From contig SVOT01000005.1 in NCBI GenBank assembly GCA_015066225.1, positions 4,498-68,497 on the forward strand: a DNA stretch of 64,000 nt, in the 5' to 3' direction. The first letter of the stretch is position 1. The number at the start of each line of letters is the position of its first letter. This document shows, piece by piece, positions 8,903 to 62,047 of the stretch. Below the pieces are notes generated by a model, which searched no databases, had not been told where the DNA came from, and was given only the letters and a program-made list of their open reading frames with translations. Made by a program: the position numbers and the translations under genes. Source of the DNA: Oscillospiraceae bacterium. GTDB lineage: Bacteria > Bacillota > Clostridia > Oscillospirales > Acutalibacteraceae.

Positions 8903-8932
8903 AGCAGACAGTTTCGACTGTCTGCTTTTTTT
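8903..8932 (+). terminator. rho-independent terminator
   Basis: Hairpin AGCAGACAG-tttcga-CTGTCTGCT followed by TTTTTT. Confidence 0.75.
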
Positions 8933-8984
8933 AGTTGGAAGTTGCAGGTGGCTGGTGGCAAGTTTCGGGGCGCAAGCGCCGATT
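8933..8984 (+). repeat. terminal repeat (TR), copy at one end of element E1
   Basis: Sequence AGTTGGAAG TTGCAGG TGGCTGG TGGCAAG TTTCGGG GCGCAAGCGCC GATT: a heptamer array plus a GC hairpin. The same architecture occurs at five other loci. Confidence 0.8.
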
Positions 8985-9002
8985 TTATTAATATGTAAAA
9001 TT

Positions 9003-9174
9003 GTTGCGAAGCCTATCATCCCTGTGCACGCAAGTGCATAGGGAGGGGGACCGCGCCTAAGTGTAACGAAGGCGGGGTGGTGGGTCGCCACCTTATTGTT
9101 TTCCTTCGCAGATGAAACGGAAAATCTCACCTCTCATTTACCTCCCTTCGAAGAGAGGTAAAACACCACCAAAA
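9003..9174 (-). ncRNA. candidate structured RNA module, long form (E1 copy)
   Basis: The reverse complement aligns end to end with 42738-42903: TTTTGGTGGTG, hairpin TACCTCTCTTCGAAGGGAGGTA, hairpin TTTTCC..GGAAAA, then the shared core with covarying hairpins. No family name is known to me. Confidence 0.5.
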
Positions 9175-9185
9175 CAAATTATTAC

Positions 9186-9288
9186 AATCGGCACGTAGTG
9201 CCCCGAAACTGGAGGCTGGCGACCGGTGGCTGGTAGCTAAACACCTTGCGCCCCGAAACTTGCCACCTGCCACTCTCAACTTGCAACT
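9186..9288 (-). repeat. two tandem TR copies (inverted relative to 8933-8984)
   Basis: 9238-9288 reverse-complements to AGTTGCAAG TTGAGAG TGGCAGG TGGCAAG TTTCGGGGCGCAAGG. 9186-9237 reverse-complements to CTACCAG CCACCGG TCGCCAG CCTCCAG TTTCGGG GCACTACGTGCC GATT, a variant heptamer set with a compensated hairpin. Confidence 0.75.
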
Positions 9289-9396
9289 AAAAAAGCGGCT
9301 TGGATTTAACCAAACCGCCTTTGTAATATTAAATTGAGTTAATCCGGGTCAATCACAGAACCGTCCTCTGTCTTACTCCCCTGTCTTATCCCTACC

Positions 9397-9951
9397 TTAT
9401 GTCTTATGTGTTTGTCCTTTTATCAATGGAATAACAAATACGGCACCGCAAAAGCTGAACGCAATTAACGCTAACATAAGACCTATTTTATCACCAAGCA
9501 AACGATCCACAAGAAAAAGCATAACGATAGAAATAATGGTTATCAGTTTAATGTTTGTTGTTATTATTGATATAAATCTCTTGGGAAAGCGAACTCTTTT
9601 CAAAAATGCAAATGCGACAACAAAAACTAAAACTACCAAACATAATATTATAAATGCTATAACTCTTTCCGCAGTTGTAAGTTCAAAAATAGAAACACAT
9701 TGAATTATTGATAAAACCGAATTGCACAATCCAAAAGCGCCAATATATTTATGGCTATTATTTTGTGTAATTACATTTTTTAAAAGCAGAAAAGCAAAAA
9801 ACAGAGCCATAACCGCAACAAAAATGGCTGTGCCTATCAACGCGGGTGATTTACGTGTTAAAAATACCAGAAAACCAAACATTATATCCGCCAACAAGTA
9901 AACCGAAAGGATTATAGCAACATTTTTCTTTACATCTTTTTTTTGCTTCAT
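9397..9951 (-). CDS. hypothetical polytopic membrane protein
   Basis: 184 aa with about 5-6 hydrophobic segments and AT-rich codon usage. I recognise no family. A hairpin with a T-run follows at about 9295-9335. Confidence 0.5.
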   Translation of the reverse strand: MKQKKDVKKNVAIILSVYLLADIMFGFLVFLTRKSPALIGTAIFVAVMALFFAFLLLKNVITQNNSHKYIGAFGLCNSVLSIIQCVSIFELTTAERVIAFIILCLVVLVFVVAFAFLKRVRFPKRFISIITTNIKLITIISIVMLFLVDRLLGDKIGLMLALIAFSFCGAVFVIPLIKGQTHKT

Positions 9952-10008: not shown

Positions 10009-10593
10009 TTATTTGATTGGCTTAAATGATTGATTCTTCCTAAAACGAATACAAACAAATAAAACAGCCACAAAAATAAAAACTGAAAAAACAGTTATAT
10101 AGAGTTTGACGCAATAGTCTGACAACGGCATCAAATAAACAACTTTATTACCATCGTCAGTTTCTTTTATAATTTTAGTTCTCCCAAAATTGAAAACCTG
10201 CTTATAAACTGTTCCATCTTTTTTTACAAATTCTGCTTTGTTTTCTCTATATTCATATAGAGAGCCTGTACTTTTAAGTTCTTCTAAAACATTGCCATTC
10301 AAATCTAACAAATAAACTTTACTGCTTATCAAATATATTGTATCATCTTCAAGAATAGTAAATTCATACCCTCTACTTGTCATTGCTGAGATTGTTTCAA
10401 AAGAAAAACCATCTTTATATTTTACAATTTTACCATTTGATAACCCAACATAAACATTATCATTACTATCAACTGCAAAACCATAAAAAGAAATATCAAA
10501 CCAACCAACTGTCACGCCAAAAAAGGAAAACAGATAGCAGCCTAAAAGGACTCCGATTACTAGCATAAGAATAAAACTATCAATTTTTTTCAT
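10009..10593 (-). CDS. hypothetical protein with N- and C-terminal TM helices
   Basis: 194 aa. TM helices flank a beta-rich middle region (DSNDNVYVGLSNGKIVKY...DDTIYLISSKVYLLDLNGNV). GGAG RBS. AT-rich. Confidence 0.5.
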   Translation of the reverse strand: MKKIDSFILMLVIGVLLGCYLFSFFGVTVGWFDISFYGFAVDSNDNVYVGLSNGKIVKYKDGFSFETISAMTSRGYEFTILEDDTIYLISSKVYLLDLNGNVLEELKSTGSLYEYRENKAEFVKKDGTVYKQVFNFGRTKIIKETDDGNKVVYLMPLSDYCVKLYITVFSVFIFVAVLFVCIRFRKNQSFKPIK

Positions 10594-10987: not shown

Positions 10988-11125
10988 GACGGTCAAGACC
11001 GTCCCCTACGTTGTTCGTTTCAGCAATAAAGAGCGTCCGCAAGGGGGCGACCCACCACCAAAAGCGCAGCTTTTGGTCCCCCTCCCTATTTTGCTACGCA
11101 AAACAGGGATGATAGGCTTCGCAAC
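10988..11125 (+). ncRNA. candidate structured RNA module, short form (E2 copy)
   Basis: Hairpin GACGGTC-aa-GACCGTC, then CTACGTTGTTCGTTTCAGCAATAAAGAGCGTCCGCAAG, then the shared core GGGGGCGACCCACCACC..CAGGGATGATAGGCTTCGCAAC. The 5' part matches 58203-58240. Confidence 0.5.
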
Positions 11126-11142
11126 ACTTTTATATATCAATA

Positions 11143-11195
11143 CAATCGGCGCTTGCGCCCCTTAACTTGCCACTTGCCATTTGCCACTTGCAACT
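11143..11195 (-). repeat. TR copy (inverted; end of element E2)
   Basis: Reverse complement reads AGTTGCAAG TGGCAAA TGGCAAG TGGCAAG TTAAGGG GCGCAAGCGCC GATTG. Confidence 0.8.
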
Positions 11196-11291
11196 AATTT
11201 ATTTAACTTTCCACTTGTTTTAGTTTTTTATCTCTGTTATACTGTATTATGTATTTTTATGATATAAAAACATCTGTTACGGAAGTGTGAT

Positions 11292-12284
11292 ATGAAAAAT
11301 ATTTTAAAGCGGGCAATCGCTCTTGTGACAACATTTTGCTGTGTAGCCTCTCTGCTTGTTTTCAGCGGATGCTCTACCCCCAAAAAGCAACCGGTTATGT
11401 CTATAAACGGCGTTGAAATCAGCAACGACGTTTTCACATATTTTTTAGACTGTGCAACAGTTGAGCTGGGTGTGGATGCACCCCTTGAATCGCTGAAGAA
11501 AAAGGCTTCGACTCTTGCGGGAACTTATTTTAAAATAAACTCCCTTGCAAACAAGCACGGGGTCACCCTCACAACGGGCGAGAAAAAGGCTGTTTCTGAA
11601 AAAGTGGATGCTCATTGGCACTTTTTCGGTGAGTATTATACAGAAATCGGCATAAGCCGTGAAACTCTCACAAAGGTTTTTACCGCCGATGCATACAGAG
11701 ATGCTCTTCTGATGTTCTTTTACGGCACAGGCGGCGAGGAGGAAATCCCCGTTGCACGACTTTTTGGTGAATTTAAAACAAACTACATCGTTTTTCAGGC
11801 TATTACGGGTTATTTCACAAAAACCGACATAAACGGCAGACCCGTTAAAATACCCGAAACCGAAGCAGAGGCGCTTATTCTCAAGTTTCAGAATATTGCC
11901 GCTATGGTAAACGCCGGCGAGCAGACTATGGAGGAGGCCGCAGATTTCCTTGCTGAAACCGGCTACAAAAGCTCGGTGCAGACGGTTATTCTAAACAAGG
12001 ATGACACGAGCTACCCTGCAGGCTTTTTTGAAAGGGTTAAAAAAATCGATGCTAAAAAAGCAACCGTCATCGGCACGGATGAGTACATTTTCCTTGTACT
12101 CAGGGGCGACGCAGGTGTAAACAGTGAATATTTCATTGAGAAAAAGACTGAAATGATTAAAATAATTGTCGGCGATGAAATTGACAACAAAATCGCAGAC
12201 TCCATGGTGGTTGACGTTGTAATCTCAGATTCCGACGTAAACGGCTATTACGCCTTGATAAAGGATGCAAAAACCGAAAAATAA
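11292..12284 (+). CDS. lipoprotein, possibly a PrsA/SurA-like foldase
   Basis: Lipobox LVFSGC after a signal peptide. The overall layout resembles SurA-N/parvulin-like chaperones, but I saw no clear PPIase signature. Confidence 0.4.
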   Translation: MKNILKRAIALVTTFCCVASLLVFSGCSTPKKQPVMSINGVEISNDVFTYFLDCATVELGVDAPLESLKKKASTLAGTYFKINSLANKHGVTLTTGEKKAVSEKVDAHWHFFGEYYTEIGISRETLTKVFTADAYRDALLMFFYGTGGEEEIPVARLFGEFKTNYIVFQAITGYFTKTDINGRPVKIPETEAEALILKFQNIAAMVNAGEQTMEEAADFLAETGYKSSVQTVILNKDDTSYPAGFFERVKKIDAKKATVIGTDEYIFLVLRGDAGVNSEYFIEKKTEMIKIIVGDEIDNKIADSMVVDVVISDSDVNGYYALIKDAKTEK

Positions 12285-29960: not shown

Positions 29961-29976
29961 GATACTCCTTTATTTA

Positions 29977-30029
29977 AGTGGCAAGTTAGAAGTTGCAAGT
30001 GGCAAGTTTCGGGGCGCTTTGCGCCGATT
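29977..30029 (+). repeat. TR copy (element E3)
   Basis: AGTGGCAAG TTAGAAG TTGCAAG TGGCAAG TTTCGGG GCGCTTTGCGCC GATT. It starts 17 nt upstream of the rmuC start codon, on the opposite strand. Confidence 0.8.
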
Positions 30030-30044
30030 ATAATTGGTATATTA

Positions 30045-30329
30045 CAGGTTTGCGGAATTGTGAAGCAACGCTGTACAAAGGTACTGCAAGCTGAACAAAA
30101 CACAAAGATTGCTTATTTTAAAAAACCATAAAGAATTTTCTTAGATTGCGTCAGGTTCGTGGCTTTGTGAAACGCAGGCGTACAAAGGTACATCAAGTTG
30201 AACAACCCACAAAATGCTGCAACGTATAGAATTTTCTTAGATTGTAGCAGGTTTGCGGAATTGTGAAGCGACGCTGTACAAAGGTACTGCGAGCTGAACA
30301 AAACGCAAAGATGCTGCAATATAAGGAAA
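30045..30329. repeat. three tandem direct repeats of about 96-107 bp
   Basis: Units begin at 30045, 30152 and 30248 (CAGGTTTGCGGAATTGTGAAGC.ACGCTGTACAAAGGTACTGC.AGCTGAACAAAAC.CAAAGA..). Units 1 and 3 are near identical and unit 2 is diverged. Confidence 0.8.
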
Positions 30330-31829
30330 TTATTCCCAGTTGCGTGAACGGTCTACTGCTTTATGCCAACCATTTATCATCTTTTCTCTTGAATCGTTAT
30401 CGATTGCGGGGACAAAAATGCGGTCAACCTCACGAACACGCTCGATTTCGTCAAAATCCTTCCAGAAGCCAACGGCAAGACCTGCCATATAGGCGGCACC
30501 GAGAGCGGTTGTTTCAACAAGCTTTGGTCTGTTGACCTTAGATGAAATAAGGTTTGATTGAATCTGAAGAAGAATGTTGCTGACAGATGCACCGCCGTCA
30601 ACTCTCATTTCGCTGAGAAGAATGCCACTGTCTTTGGACATTGCGTCCACAAGGTCGGTTACCTGATAGGCGATGCTTTCAAGCACCGCTCTTGCAAAGT
30701 GGGCGCGGTTAACGCCTCTTGTAAGGCCAACAATACATCCCCTTGCGTACATATCCCAATAGGGTGCACCAAGACCCGTGAAGGCGGGCACAAGATATAT
30801 ACCGTTTGCATCCCTTACGCTTTCTGCAAGAAAATCACATTCGCTGGGCTCGGAAATAAGGCGGAGCTCGTCACGGAGCCATTTGATAACAGAGCCCGCA
30901 TTGAATGCACTGCCCTCAAGGTCATAGGTAACCTTGCCGTTTATTCCCCAAGCGATGCCTTCAATAAGGTTATTTTTTGAGCGGATGCGCTTTTCACCCG
31001 TATTCATAAGAAGGAAACAGCCTGTGCCGTATGTATTTTTTGCCTGACCCGCATTGAAGCAAGCCTGACCGAAAAGAGCCGCCTGCTGGTCACCGATTGC
31101 ACCCGAAATGGGAACACCGGCAAGCTCTTTGAGACCGGGTACATCGTCGGAAACGTAGCCGTAAACGGAGCTACATTCCCTCACCTCGGGGAGAATACTC
31201 ATCGGTATGCCCAGCTCGTTGCAAAGATGCTCATCCCAGCAAAGCTTTTCAATATCGAAAAGCATTGTTCTTGCGGCGTTACTGTAATCTGTGACGTGAA
31301 CCTGTTTGTTGGTGAGGTTCCAGATAAGCCACGTTTCAACAGTACCGAAAAGGAGCTTGCCATCAAGGGCAAGTGTTCTTGCCTCAGGAACATTGTCAAG
31401 AATCCATTTTATTTTTGTTGCGCTGAAATATGCATCAATAAGAAGACCTGTGTGCTCTTTTACATAGTCCTCAAGGCCATCTGCTTTGAGCTTTTCACAG
31501 ATGGGTGCCGTTCTGCGACACTGCCACACAATAGCATTGTAAACAGGCTTGCCTGTGTCTTTATCCCAAAGAATGGTTGTTTCGCGCTGGTTTGTGATGC
31601 CGATTGCGGCAATTTCTTTGGGGTCAATTTTGCCGTTTATGAGTGCCATGGAAAGGGAGCGAAGCTGTGAATCAAGAATTTCATAGGGGTTGTGCTCCAC
31701 CCAGCCTGTTTTAGGATAAATCTGTTCAAATTCAAACTGAGCCTTAGATACTATTCTGCCTTTTTTGTCAAAAACTATAGTTCTTGAGCTTGTTGTGCCC
31801 TGGTCAAGGGCGAGAACATATTTTTTCAT
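30330..31829 (-). CDS. glpK: glycerol kinase
   Basis: The start [24 protein letters not shown] and the FGGY family blocks are present. 499 aa. Confidence 0.9.
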
Positions 31830-42681: not shown

Positions 42682-42726
42682 AGTTGCAAGTGGCAGATGG
42701 CAAGTTTCGGGGCACAAGCGCCGATT
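42682..42726 (+). repeat. TR copy (element E4)
   Basis: AGTTGCAAG TGGCAGA TGGCAAG TTTCGGG GCACAAGCGCC GATT. Confidence 0.8.
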
Positions 42727-42737
42727 GTATTGATGTG

Positions 42738-42903
42738 TTTTGGTGGTGTTTTACCTCTCTTCGAAGAGAGGTAAAAGAAAGGTGAGCTTTTCCGATTCAT
42801 CTGCGAAGGAAAGAGGTAAGGGGGCGACCCACCACCAAAAGCATAGCTTTTGGTCCCCCTCCCTATTTGCCGTTGGCAAACAGGGATGATAGCTCTTCGC
42901 AAC
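42738..42903 (+). ncRNA. candidate structured RNA module, long form (E4 copy)
   Basis: TTTTGGTGGTG; perfect hairpin TACCTCTCTTCGAAGAGAGGTA; hairpin TTTCC..GGAAA; core GGGGGCGACCCACCACC-(ACCAAAAGC/GCTTTTGGT)-CCCCCTCCCTAT-(TTTGCC/GGCAAA)-CAGGGATGATAGCTCTTCGCAAC. Confidence 0.5.
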
Positions 42904-58178: not shown

Positions 58179-58330
58179 ACGGGTAAGCCCCGAAGCTTGC
58201 AACTACGTTATTCGTTTCACCAACGAAGAGCGTCCGCAAGGGGGCGACCCACCACCCCGCCTGCGTTACACTACGGCGCGGTCCCCCTCCCTATTTGCCG
58301 TTGGCAAACAGGGATGATAGGCTTCACAAC
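58179..58330 (+). ncRNA. candidate structured RNA module, short form (E5 copy), preceded by a truncated TR
   Basis: ACGGGTAAGCCCCGAAGCTTGCAACT (TR hairpin plus last heptamer), then CTACGTTATTCGTTTCACCAACGAAGAGCGTCCGCAAG, then the core with hairpins ACCCCGCC../..GGCGCGGT and TTTGCC/GGCAAA, ending GGGATGATAGGCTTCACAAC. Confidence 0.5.
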
Positions 58331-61482: not shown

Positions 61483-61506
61483 AGTGTTTATCCTTTCAGA
61501 TTAAAT

Positions 61507-61559
61507 AGTTGCAAGTGGCAAGTTGCAAGTGGCAAGTTTCGGGACCTGCGGTCGGCATT
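61507..61559 (+). repeat. TR copy (E6, glyQS-proximal)
   Basis: AGTTGCAAG TGGCAAG TTGCAAG TGGCAAG TTTCGGG ACCTGCGGTC GGCATT. The hairpin stem is changed but still complementary. Confidence 0.8.
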
Positions 61560-61597
61560 ATAACTAACACCACTCTCACTTACTTTGCACCATTAAA

Positions 61598-61951
61598 TTA
61601 CTTTTGTAGGTTGTTTTTAGTTGTTCTGACTATTGCATACAGTGTTTTCTCTATCTCTACACATTCTGCCAAAATAGATTCCACTTCTCTCTCGGTCAAT
61701 TTCCCTGTCGCTTTTAAAAGCCTCAACCAATATTTGGTTTCGCTGTTTTCTTTTAATGCAATATTCATTTTCGTCAAAAAATCTGCTTGACTTTGAGCCT
61801 GTTGTGCTTCCGCGACATTTGCGCCTATACTTGTTCCAGAACGCAAAATCTGGCTGCTGATATCATACTCGTTTGTGTGTTTAAGCAAGTAATCCTTCAA
61901 ATTCACAATTCTGACAGCAAAGTCAAAAGTGCGTTTTTCAATATCAGCCAT
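61598..61951 (-). CDS. four helix bundle protein (TIGR02436 / 23S rRNA intervening-sequence protein family, Avd-like)
   Basis: QILRSGTSIGANVAEAQQAQSQADFLTKMNIALKENSETKYWLRLL matches the family signature (RS.TSIGANIAEA...S..DF..K..IALKE..ET.YWL.LL). ATG 61951 with GAAGG RBS. Confidence 0.85.
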   Translation of the reverse strand: MADIEKRTFDFAVRIVNLKDYLLKHTNEYDISSQILRSGTSIGANVAEAQQAQSQADFLTKMNIALKENSETKYWLRLLKATGKLTEREVESILAECVEIEKTLYAIVRTTKNNLQK

Positions 61952-61988
61952 ATATACGCCTTCATTCAAATATCTTTTTATTGTTTTA

Positions 61989-62042
61989 CAATCGGCGCAT
62001 AGCGCCCCTTAATTTGCCACTTGCCACTCTCAACTTGCAACT
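61989..62042 (-). repeat. TR copy (E6, distal, inverted)
   Basis: Reverse complement reads AGTTGCAAG TTGAGAG TGGCAAG TGGCAAA TTAAGGG GCGCTATGCGCC GATTG. Confidence 0.8.
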
Positions 62043-62047
62043 TGTTA

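Follow-up and report, generated by a model that had tools for sequence, protein, structure and literature searches.

A hairpin-rich module of gut Clostridia: a probable mosaic repeat with a predicted triple-helical core

The 64,000-nucleotide stretch of an Oscillospiraceae bacterium analysed here (contig SVOT01000005.1 of assembly GCA_015066225.1, positions 4,498 to 68,497; hereafter the window) contains four copies of a hairpin-rich module, the best of them in the interval 42682-42903, which the original prediction regarded as a candidate unclassified structured RNA. The structure of its core is confirmed by our analysis; the module is not shown to be a dedicated non-coding RNA (ncRNA). The element to which it belongs is most likely a mosaic of the kind known from miniature inverted-repeat transposable elements (MITEs) and from repetitive extragenic palindromes and bacterial interspersed mosaic elements (REP and BIME), present in the window genome, that of an uncultured, Acutalibacteraceae-like member of the Oscillospirales from gut or rumen, and in many related Clostridia and Negativicutes, and we consider it on balance probable that the module is a selfish mobile mosaic repeat recognised by its shape at the DNA level. 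What is new with respect to the original prediction is the covariation of three strands of the core; the same core was also found in a Mu-like phage and in gene transfer agent (GTA) clusters. Judged by this covariation, the core seems to fold as an intramolecular triple helix between two variable hairpins, with hairpin 1 as the connector.

The repeated module and its conserved core

The modules lie where they had been placed, at 9003-9174 (minus strand), 10988-11125, 42738-42903 and 58179-58330. A covariance model of the core, applied to the whole window with the filters off, reported exactly these four copies (38.6-40.3 bits, E-values from 3e-7 to 7e-7), with the next-best match in the window at an E-value of ~1. 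GGCGACCCACCACC occurs four times in the window against an expectation of 0.16, and the 3' block of the core three times, exactly or nearly so, against an expectation of 0. Repetition by chance is excluded, because these counts and the E-values of the covariance model are far beyond expectation.

The core is laid out as a 7-nt C-rich strand, hairpin 1, the trinucleotide CCC and hairpin 2. Hairpin 1 is always closed by ACC/GGT, its interior being free in sequence and length, and hairpin 2 has a CCTCCC/GGGAGG-like lower stem and a free apical part. In the best copy (copy 1, 42738-42903, plus strand), a long 5' domain (42738-42815) that contains TTTTGGTGGTG and two hairpins is followed by the core (42816-42903; 42824-42892 according to the covariance model, 40.3 bits). 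The proposed third strand of this copy is the ACCCACC at 42827-42833, i.e. the 7 nt 5' of hairpin 1 (42834-42854, ACCAAAAGC-ATA-GCTTTTGGT), and hairpin 2 (42858-42888) comprises the pyrimidine strand CCTCCCT (42858-42864), a variable apical hairpin (42865-42881) and the purine strand AGGGATG (42882-42888), all on the plus strand; a small indel is found within the 3' block (GATAGCTCTTCGCAAC). Copy 2 (58179-58330, plus strand, model core 58244-58320) has a short 5' domain and lies between cdd and pdp, its 3' end ~22 nt ahead of the pdp start codon. Copy 3 (10988-11125, plus strand, model core 11047-11115) likewise has a short 5' domain and lies in a divergent intergenic region, and copy 4 (9003-9174, minus strand, model core 9013-9088) has the long one.

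The alternative long and short 5' domains are thus as originally described, and so are the complementarity of TTTTGGTGGTG to CACCACC, the hairpin-2 stems (TTTGCC/GGCAAA, TTTTGC/GCAAAA and TGCAC/GTGCA, closed by TCCCT..AGGGA) and the two types of hairpin 1 (ACCAAAAGC/GCTTTTGGT and ACCCCGCC../..GGCGCGGT). One correction concerns the second type of hairpin 1, which has a C.C mismatch at the fourth pair; one addition concerns hairpin 2, in which an A.C mismatch is conserved (TCCCT-A...C-AGGGA).

An exact-pattern scan of species-representative genomes found the core in at least 118 loci. The complete architecture is present in 163 of 172 pattern matches, the remaining nine being scattered chance matches in high-GC DNA, and the covariance model identified 165 copies in the 735 kb of the listed loci. 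Among the 172 matches the interior of hairpin 1 takes 110 distinct sequences of 8-38 nt, almost all of them perfectly complementary, with a mean contiguous helix of 6.8 pairs (4.0 for shuffled inserts). In the model-based alignment of 145 distinct rows, pairing holds for 92% of the cells; the figure is 84.5% for shuffles and drops to 37-58% once the partner is slid. Both members have changed at eight pairs, and the covariation score was not reached by any of 500 shuffles. A conserved structured nucleic acid with compensatory stem changes, as proposed from four copies, therefore holds with this larger set. For hairpin 1 the claim has to be narrowed: the compensatory changes are real, but many of the variants recur in different genomes, and therefore much of the apparent covariation is a shuffling of old alternative hairpins, for which the two types of the original prediction were already a hint.

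Three-strand covariation and the folded strand

The sequence of the 7 nt 5' of hairpin 1 follows that of the hairpin-2 purine strand in parallel (mirror) register, with G answered by C and A answered by A or T. The purine strand AGGGAGG is accompanied by the 5' strand (T/A)CCC(A/T)CC, GGGGAGG by CCCC(A/T)CC, AGAGAGG by ACTCTCC or TCTCACC, AGGAGGG by ACCTCCC, GGAGAGG by CCACTCC, AAGGAGG by ATCCTCC and AGGGGGG by TCCCCCC, and in all seven alleles the Watson-Crick pyrimidine strand changes to match. Over 37 distinct classes, the fit to this rule is 86.5% at register 0 versus 46-56% at shifted parallel registers; one antiparallel register reaches 83%, only since GGAGG is its own mirror image, and the informative variants do not obey it. 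Joint deviations lie along the diagonal, with the observed value attained in 0 of 5000 permutations, and variant C, when parsed as CTCTCC+ACC, fits the rule perfectly. Since mirror repeats are not the product of any duplication mechanism, we take the mirror covariation as a structural constraint. Sequence data seldom show three-way covariation; here the base code and the polarity appear to be kept through sequence change, as would be demanded of a triple helix, which is what the pattern predicts.

As in H-DNA and in RNA triple helices (those of the ENE/MALAT1 type and the C+ triples of pseudoknots), the third strand mirrors the purine strand and obeys a comparable base code (G with C and A with A or T in the core; G·G-C, A·A-T and T·A-T on the other strand). 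Unlike in H-DNA, the three strands of the core lie on one strand, joined by two hairpins, and there is no long homopurine mirror tract. The predicted triplex would comprise only 6-7 triples and, unlike the ENEs, would not be rich in U·A-U.

Read on the C-rich strand, the core would be a pyrimidine-motif triplex (C+·G-C, U/T·A-T), which needs protonation and whose most frequent variant includes a non-canonical A·A-T. On the G-rich strand, the reading would be that of a purine-motif triplex with G·G-C, A·A-T and T·A-T all canonical, and the tolerance of the third strand for either A or T would be accounted for, because both A·A-T and T·A-T are canonical there. The original prediction had offered a G-T pair in one stem as a weak argument for the C-rich strand, its "forward" orientation. 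With more copies the mismatches and the folding point to the opposite strand: A.C on the C-rich strand corresponds to G.T on the G-rich one, ~80 non-standard cells of the C-rich strand, judged to be mostly A.C, compare with three of the G.U type, and the G-rich strand gives the better fold in 147 of 150 copies when treated as RNA and in all four window copies with DNA parameters. On these sequence grounds, the G-rich strand is more likely the folded one. Semerad and Maher reportedly found in 1994 that RNA strands are excluded from purine-motif triplexes, and therefore the G-rich reading leans towards single-stranded DNA.

Other pairings, which are possible alternatives to the triplex, can be drawn in some copies. 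The CCC of the third strand can pair with an upstream GGG in a GGG-GNRA-CCC mini-hairpin (GCGA or GCAA loop) at 42820-42833, 58240-58253 and 11043-11056, and the same pairing can be drawn in GGGGCAA-type copies of other genomes; in the subfamily made up of these copies a second option is a pairing of the upstream G run with the CCCCC after hairpin 1.

Mosaic elements, their spread and their genomic context

The modules adjoin, or sit between, arms of ~55 nt, which had been overlooked in the original prediction. An arm is built of heptad repeats (GGCAAGT-like), TTTCGGGG, a small GC hairpin and CCGATT, and the stem of the GC hairpin varies with compensation (GGCGC/GCGCC, GGCAC/GTGCC, GGACC/GGTC). 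Module-associated arms lie at 8927-8984, 9245-9294, 11136-11197 and 42682-42738, and further arms of the same type at 29970-30030, 61500-61547 and 61999-62044. The left arm beside copy 1 (42682-42737, plus strand) runs from GGCAAGT-like heptads through TTTCGGGG and the GC hairpin to CCGATTGTATTGAT, and the right arm after copy 3 (11136-11197, plus strand) is the reverse-complement form of the arm at 42682. Copy 2 lacks full arms and retains a degenerate arm remnant on its 5' side only. The full order, namely heptad and GC-hairpin arm, long or short 5' domain, core and inverted arm, is exemplified by the complete ~370-nt element that encloses copy 4 (8927-9294, minus strand; two arms, a second partial arm and the module), situated between two convergent terminators. 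Its 50-nt arms (8927-8976 and 9245-9294) are 90% complementary, and a possible TA flanking the element as a target duplication is only suggested. A weak sigma-70-like site (9/12 score), TTCGCA-17-TACAAT or TAAAAT, faces outward at the 3' end of the module in the two copies with a right arm (11118-11146, plus strand, and 9010-8982, minus strand).

The same arms are found with other cargo. A sister cassette (61500-62044, minus strand), positioned between an ABC-transporter gene and glyS, encloses a gene for a 117-aa four-helix-bundle protein (61598-61951, minus strand; PF05635 23S_rRNA_IVP / TIGR02436, weakly Avd-like), and the identical protein is encoded in at least 23 metagenome contigs. Such a gene was found near the module at only one further locus of ~120, so that there is no general link. 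Downstream of rmuC, the arm at 29970-30030 is followed by three tandem ~100-nt units (29970-30330 including the arm, plus strand), which are 65-76% identical, each fold as a 26-pair hairpin with four pairs changed on both sides, and have no Rfam match even at E<=1; they are a second unclassified hairpin repeat, another cargo beside the same arm.

The arms raise the question of whether the arm-module-arm elements resemble the intervening sequences (IVS) of 23S rRNA, in which case the ~55-bp arm duplex, once transcribed, would be cut by RNase III, the interior would be released or destroyed, the host transcript would be split, and this RNA consequence would be the selected trait. The single-stranded fold of 8920-9300 (381 nt) is indeed one long branched hairpin (minimum free energy -173 kcal/mol, z = -8.4) with a terminal stem of ~55 bp, typical of RNase III substrates, and the PF05635 / TIGR02436 gene between the arms at 61500-62044 is the ORF typical of rRNA IVS, as in Leptospira and Coxiella. 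Selfish behaviour is a further likeness: IVS are described as selfish elements in a terminal stem (PMC4990558). Nonetheless, both arms are present on only one of the four window modules, the heptad arrays on the two sides of the module in the Acutalibacteraceae metagenome-assembled genome (MAG) L097 are not complementary, in the phage copies described below the heptads are confined to one side, there is no ORF in the module itself, and the elements lie between protein genes and none of them in rRNA, so that we regard this explanation as highly unlikely.

The loci listed come mostly from MAGs of Acutalibacteraceae, Oscillospiraceae and other Clostridia, but also from Veillonellaceae and Selenomonadaceae, with several contigs per MAG; the Clostridia MAGs among the matches listed derive from ruminant, rabbit and other gut samples. 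Near-identical strains of the window organism are present in many metagenome assemblies, and L097 is ~80% identical to it over 2.3 kb of the deo operon. Copies share their unit ends, tandem copies occur, and neighbouring copies are inverted in 32 cases versus direct in 13, many with gaps of 40-240 nt. Comparison of relatives reveals replacement of parts. In strain L151, the site at 42.7k has identical flanks and keeps the same arm, and the 160-nt module is replaced by a 58-nt arm variant with GCCGGNC heptads and a hairpin. In L097 the cdd-pdp interval holds two inverted heptad arrays with an unrelated interior and no core, and a core is found ahead of deoD, where the window has none. A regular-expression search for arm pairs with large cargo gave few matches, the arms being too species-specific.

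Two further arrangements were noted. In L123 (6720-7645), the inverted ends of a small cassette are formed by modules themselves (124 nt, 85% complementary); the two enclose a 132-aa DUF559 ORF (Vsr-like endonuclease fold), another small cargo of selfish appearance in this repeat system. In L080 (5660-6740), a nested palindrome of ~1 kb without ORFs runs in the order heptads, hairpin, reverse module, inner inverted variant pair (CTCTCC/CCTCTC/GAGAGG), forward module, hairpin and heptads, and one reverse module there carries an 85-nt insertion inside hairpin 1.

The genomic neighborhood does not support a dedicated gene or regulator. In the low-GC loci, with crude gene calls, 20 modules lie between two co-oriented genes on their own strand, 25 between two genes on the opposite strand, 12 between divergent and 12 between convergent genes, and relative to the majority coding strand of the locus the counts are 26 versus 36; both distributions are unbiased. 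Of the four window copies, two do not precede a co-oriented gene; both are situated past terminators, one of them in a convergent intergenic region and the other antisense to the genes on either side. No promoter-like site was found upstream of any window copy, the terminators nearby all belong to neighbouring genes, and the genes beside the window copies are mutually unrelated, without association with one gene family. The motif is present in none of 80 orthologous pdp loci (54-75% identity, searched within 2.5 kb). The idea of a discrete strand-specific ncRNA gene or regulator is not supported, given the unbiased orientation, the lack of an own promoter and terminator and the absence from the 80 pdp loci. 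A riboswitch or other gene-specific leader is likewise not supported: neighbours are unrelated, the 58.2k copy is absent at the pdp orthologues and in the cdd-pdp interval of L097, and the 42.8k module is replaced in L151. Nor is an independent gene for a small RNA (sRNA) supported, because a conserved promoter and terminator of its own are both lacking across the window copies.

The original prediction could not match the module to an RNA family, and none was found here: Rfam 15 at the gathering score matched nothing in the whole window and nothing in nine related loci, and at E<=10 only unrelated weak matches outside the module were reported around the best copy. The families left unmatched include hammerhead, twister, pistol, hatchet, HDV, HEARO, IS605-orfB, ROOL, raiA and T-box. 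The exclusion of tRNA and tmRNA also stands, as ARAGORN found no such genes in the window; a permuted tmRNA or tRNA-like molecule (GGGGGCGA... / ...CCACC) was discarded since the T-arm is lacking and ARAGORN is negative. The invariant 12-mers have no occurrence in a full-text literature search, and the literature searched on IVS and four-helix-bundle proteins, Clostridial repeats, GTA intergenic repeats and REPIN contains no description of the element. A trans-acting sRNA family, riboswitch or self-cleaving ribozyme, towards which the original prediction leaned, would explain the long invariant single-stranded segments, the covarying stems and the lack of coding potential, and in view of the missing matches it would be new. 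However, promoter and terminator are lacking, no gene family is associated, the module is found in both orientations and commonly in inverted pairs, C makes up nearly all of the invariant residues and the covariation would be explained by a triple helix; the hammerhead, twister, pistol, hatchet and HDV models are unmatched even at E<=10, and the double pseudoknot of an HDV-like fold cannot be threaded by hand, as the strand after hairpin 1 has no upstream partner. We consider this class of explanations very improbable. Cuckoo RNAs, the alphaproteobacterial sRNAs with CCUCCUCCC loops, and other anti-Shine-Dalgarno (anti-SD) sRNAs share with the module a C-rich anti-SD-like sequence, and cuckoo RNAs have variable stems with many compensatory changes and several copies per genome (PMC4615179), as the module does. 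They were judged to be different, since their C-rich motif sits in the hairpin loops of bona fide sRNAs, whereas in the module it forms a stem with a GGGAGG partner.

The reading that we favour, a selfish repeat recognised at the DNA level, would bring these features together as follows. The parts of the element occur in varied combinations and replace one another between strains and species. The core would be exposed as single-stranded DNA and recognised by shape rather than by sequence. As DNA, the element would spread and reshuffle in two ways, through transposition by an enzyme acting in trans and through recombination among dispersed copies. Any consequences for the host, such as stable structures in read-through transcripts, sequestration of the SD-like GGGAGG and the weak outward promoter-like site, would be by-products.

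Several families of repeats resemble the element. REP, BIME and REPIN of Enterobacteria and Pseudomonas and RIME of rhizobia are short GC-rich extragenic palindromes in many copies, which form mosaics with other short motifs and inverted doublets, are conserved in shape more than in sequence and have no bias of orientation with respect to genes; the 165 model matches in 735 kb and the 32 inverted versus 13 direct neighbour pairs agree with this pattern. Unlike REP and BIME, the module has no conserved 5' GTAG at the foot of its hairpin, and RAYT (the Y1 transposase) was not found in the 1.68 Mb of loci searched; its core consists of two hairpins and a third strand rather than one palindrome, and is shared between phyla, whereas REP is species-specific. 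Among MITEs with structured transcripts, the Correia elements of Neisseria, BOX and RUP of pneumococci and RU/ERIC of enterobacteria are similarly non-coding, intergenic and 100-400 nt long, form a long stable hairpin when transcribed and have an outward promoter-like site, and BOX has a comparable modular A-B-C-like build with optional parts. The terminal inverted repeats expected of a MITE are seen in the 50-nt arms of the 8927-9294 element and again at 61500 and 61999. Unlike in MITEs, the ends are heptad arrays, which vary from species to species and even, within one element, from one side to the other, and the internal core also occurs alone, without ends; we know of no autonomous insertion sequence (IS) with the same ends. 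Finally, the STRR heptamer repeats and small dispersed repeats of cyanobacteria also combine tandem heptanucleotide arrays in intergenic DNA with nested palindromic units, to which the 85-nt insertion in hairpin 1 of L080 may be compared, but they belong to other phyla and have other sequences, and to our knowledge no link between STRR and a triplex-type core has been described.

If this reading is true, mosaic repeats form, in these Clostridia of rumen and gut, a rich family of which no description was found in Rfam or in the literature searched, and whose parts (heptad arms, hairpins, core and small selfish ORFs) reshuffle on the time scale of strains. This would be relevant to MAG assembly, to strain typing and to the recognition of repeats mistaken for regulatory RNAs, and it raises the question of which enzyme recognises the shape of the core.

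Copies in a Mu-like phage and in gene transfer agent clusters

A scan of viral contigs revealed 18 with the core, most of which are alphaproteobacterial GTA-like head-tail clusters of 62-66% GC (L011, L012, L014, L016-L019, L023, L024, L027 and L028). These clusters contain up to five copies on the same strand, each 10-30 nt ahead of a start codon, before portal, g6, major-tail, g12 and g15-like genes, and the occupied junctions are shared between species, while the hairpin-1 sequences differ and are compensated. The GTA core reads AAGAAAC-CCCACCACC-hairpin-GGTCCCCCTCCCC-loop-GGGGAGG-TAYAAGA, and in some copies it is preceded by a sister domain, GCCCCCTCCG-hairpin-CACCTCCCC-loop-GGGGAGG. BLAST searches with the alphaproteobacterial version against plasmids and phages returned short partial matches only and were uninformative.

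L013 (IMGVR_UViG_3300025316_001112) is a Mu-like phage of 51% GC, in which a 10-kb locus on the minus strand encodes the C-terminus of the Mu transposase, a MuB-like ATPase, Gam, GemA, Mor and gp27. Nine copies are found at gene junctions, all nine on the gene strand, in a uniform layout of stop codon, 4 to 7 heptads, core, 17 to 80 nt and start codon. The heptads are purine-rich and read UAG-N4 or AAG-N4, with a periodicity that resembles the binding sites of HutP-type ring proteins; binding of a HutP- or TRAP-like protein to NAG-N4 heptads was rejected, as the other arms do not fit, arms are found in either orientation, and a protein of this kind was not encountered. In L025, two divergent copies each point to their own gene.

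These copies are the best ground for an explanation according to which the core functions in cis as RNA of the C-rich (sense) strand, located between cistrons or in 5' untranslated regions (UTRs) and, in Clostridial chromosomes, spread by a mobile carrier; a compact hairpin-triplex might, like a 5' stabiliser, block exonucleases such as RNase J after upstream cleavage, or translation might be set via the sequestered SD-like GGGAGG. The nine sense copies of L013 with their uniform layout, the conserved GTA junctions with compensatory differences in hairpin 1, the divergent copies of L025 and the position of the 58.2k copy just before pdp all speak in its favour. RNA is able to adopt a pyrimidine-motif triplex (C+·G-C, U·A-U), and SD-like 5' stabilisers (STAB-SD) are known in Bacillus. 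On the other hand, orientation is unbiased in bacterial chromosomes, half of the window copies cannot lie in a sense 5' UTR, and the motif is absent at orthologous pdp loci and replaced between strains. Moreover, opposite A-U the third strand most often has a non-canonical A, A.C mismatches are present in the stems, and runs of C+ need acid. An equally possible cause of the uniform sense orientation in operons is that transcripts with the G-rich, SD-like orientation are selected against. Taken together, we find the cis-acting RNA rather unlikely as an account of the module.

A different proposal is that the core is a site used by host or phage at the DNA level, either for shape-specific binding or as a topological site (as with BIME and gyrase or nucleoid proteins, or with H-DNA), or as a recombination signal. 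The mirror-repeat signature of a triplex is the classic signature of H-DNA, the core is conserved across phyla, and the copies are extragenic and unbiased in orientation. BIMEs are bound by gyrase, and Mu depends on a strong gyrase site. On the G-rich strand, GGTGGTGG is similar to the proteobacterial Chi; a Chi function is unlikely, since Chi sequences differ between phyla, whereas the core of the module does not. We know of no protein partner of the core, and a site beneficial to the host would not be expected to come and go between strains, nor to lie inside arms that also carry selfish small ORFs. This proposal seems improbable to us.

The selfish-repeat reading has difficulties of its own. 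About half a dozen copies violate the triplex rule at one position, and the triple helix itself is predicted from covariation. No transposase or other mobilising enzyme was found: tblastn searches with IS200/IS608 TnpA in 1.68 Mb of loci gave none, a scope in which a single-copy gene could lie elsewhere in the genomes, and no transposase was found between arms in these loci, the scans of genomes and metagenomes having been aimed at the core and pdp loci. Insertion in the strand-specific style of IS200/IS605 was rejected, there being no bias with respect to the majority coding strand and no TnpA. No pair of a filled and an empty site was found, and the polymorphic sites hold other parts of the repeat. 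The 21-nt core is common to Firmicutes and Alphaproteobacteria, whereas REP and MITE families are normally species-specific. Finally, the phage and GTA copies are all sense-oriented, 10-80 nt ahead of start codons, which looks like a function in transcripts on the C-rich strand.

A further reading is that the core is an undescribed cross-phylum fold with its own function, a helix of 6-7 triples clamped by two variable hairpins; we hold this possible, although unlikely. In an RNA version, it could act between cistrons in Mu-like phages and GTA as an exonuclease-resistant or pH-sensitive 5' cap; in a DNA version, the shape of the single strand would be read by mobilisation or recombination machinery. 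Under either version, the mosaic repeats of Clostridia would be its selfish expansion. The sense-oriented cores ahead of nearly all genes of the Mu-like phage and of the GTA clusters provide a handle on whether such repeats are merely tolerated or used for operon expression, with stabilisation or processing of mRNA as possible uses.

Three ORFs close to the modules at 9.0k and 11.0k have no significant match in Pfam or NCBIfam. Those at 9397-9951 and 10009-10593 (minus strand; 184 and 194 aa) lie between this inverted pair of modules, and the one at 11292-12284 (plus strand; 330 aa) lies just downstream of the 11.0k copy.

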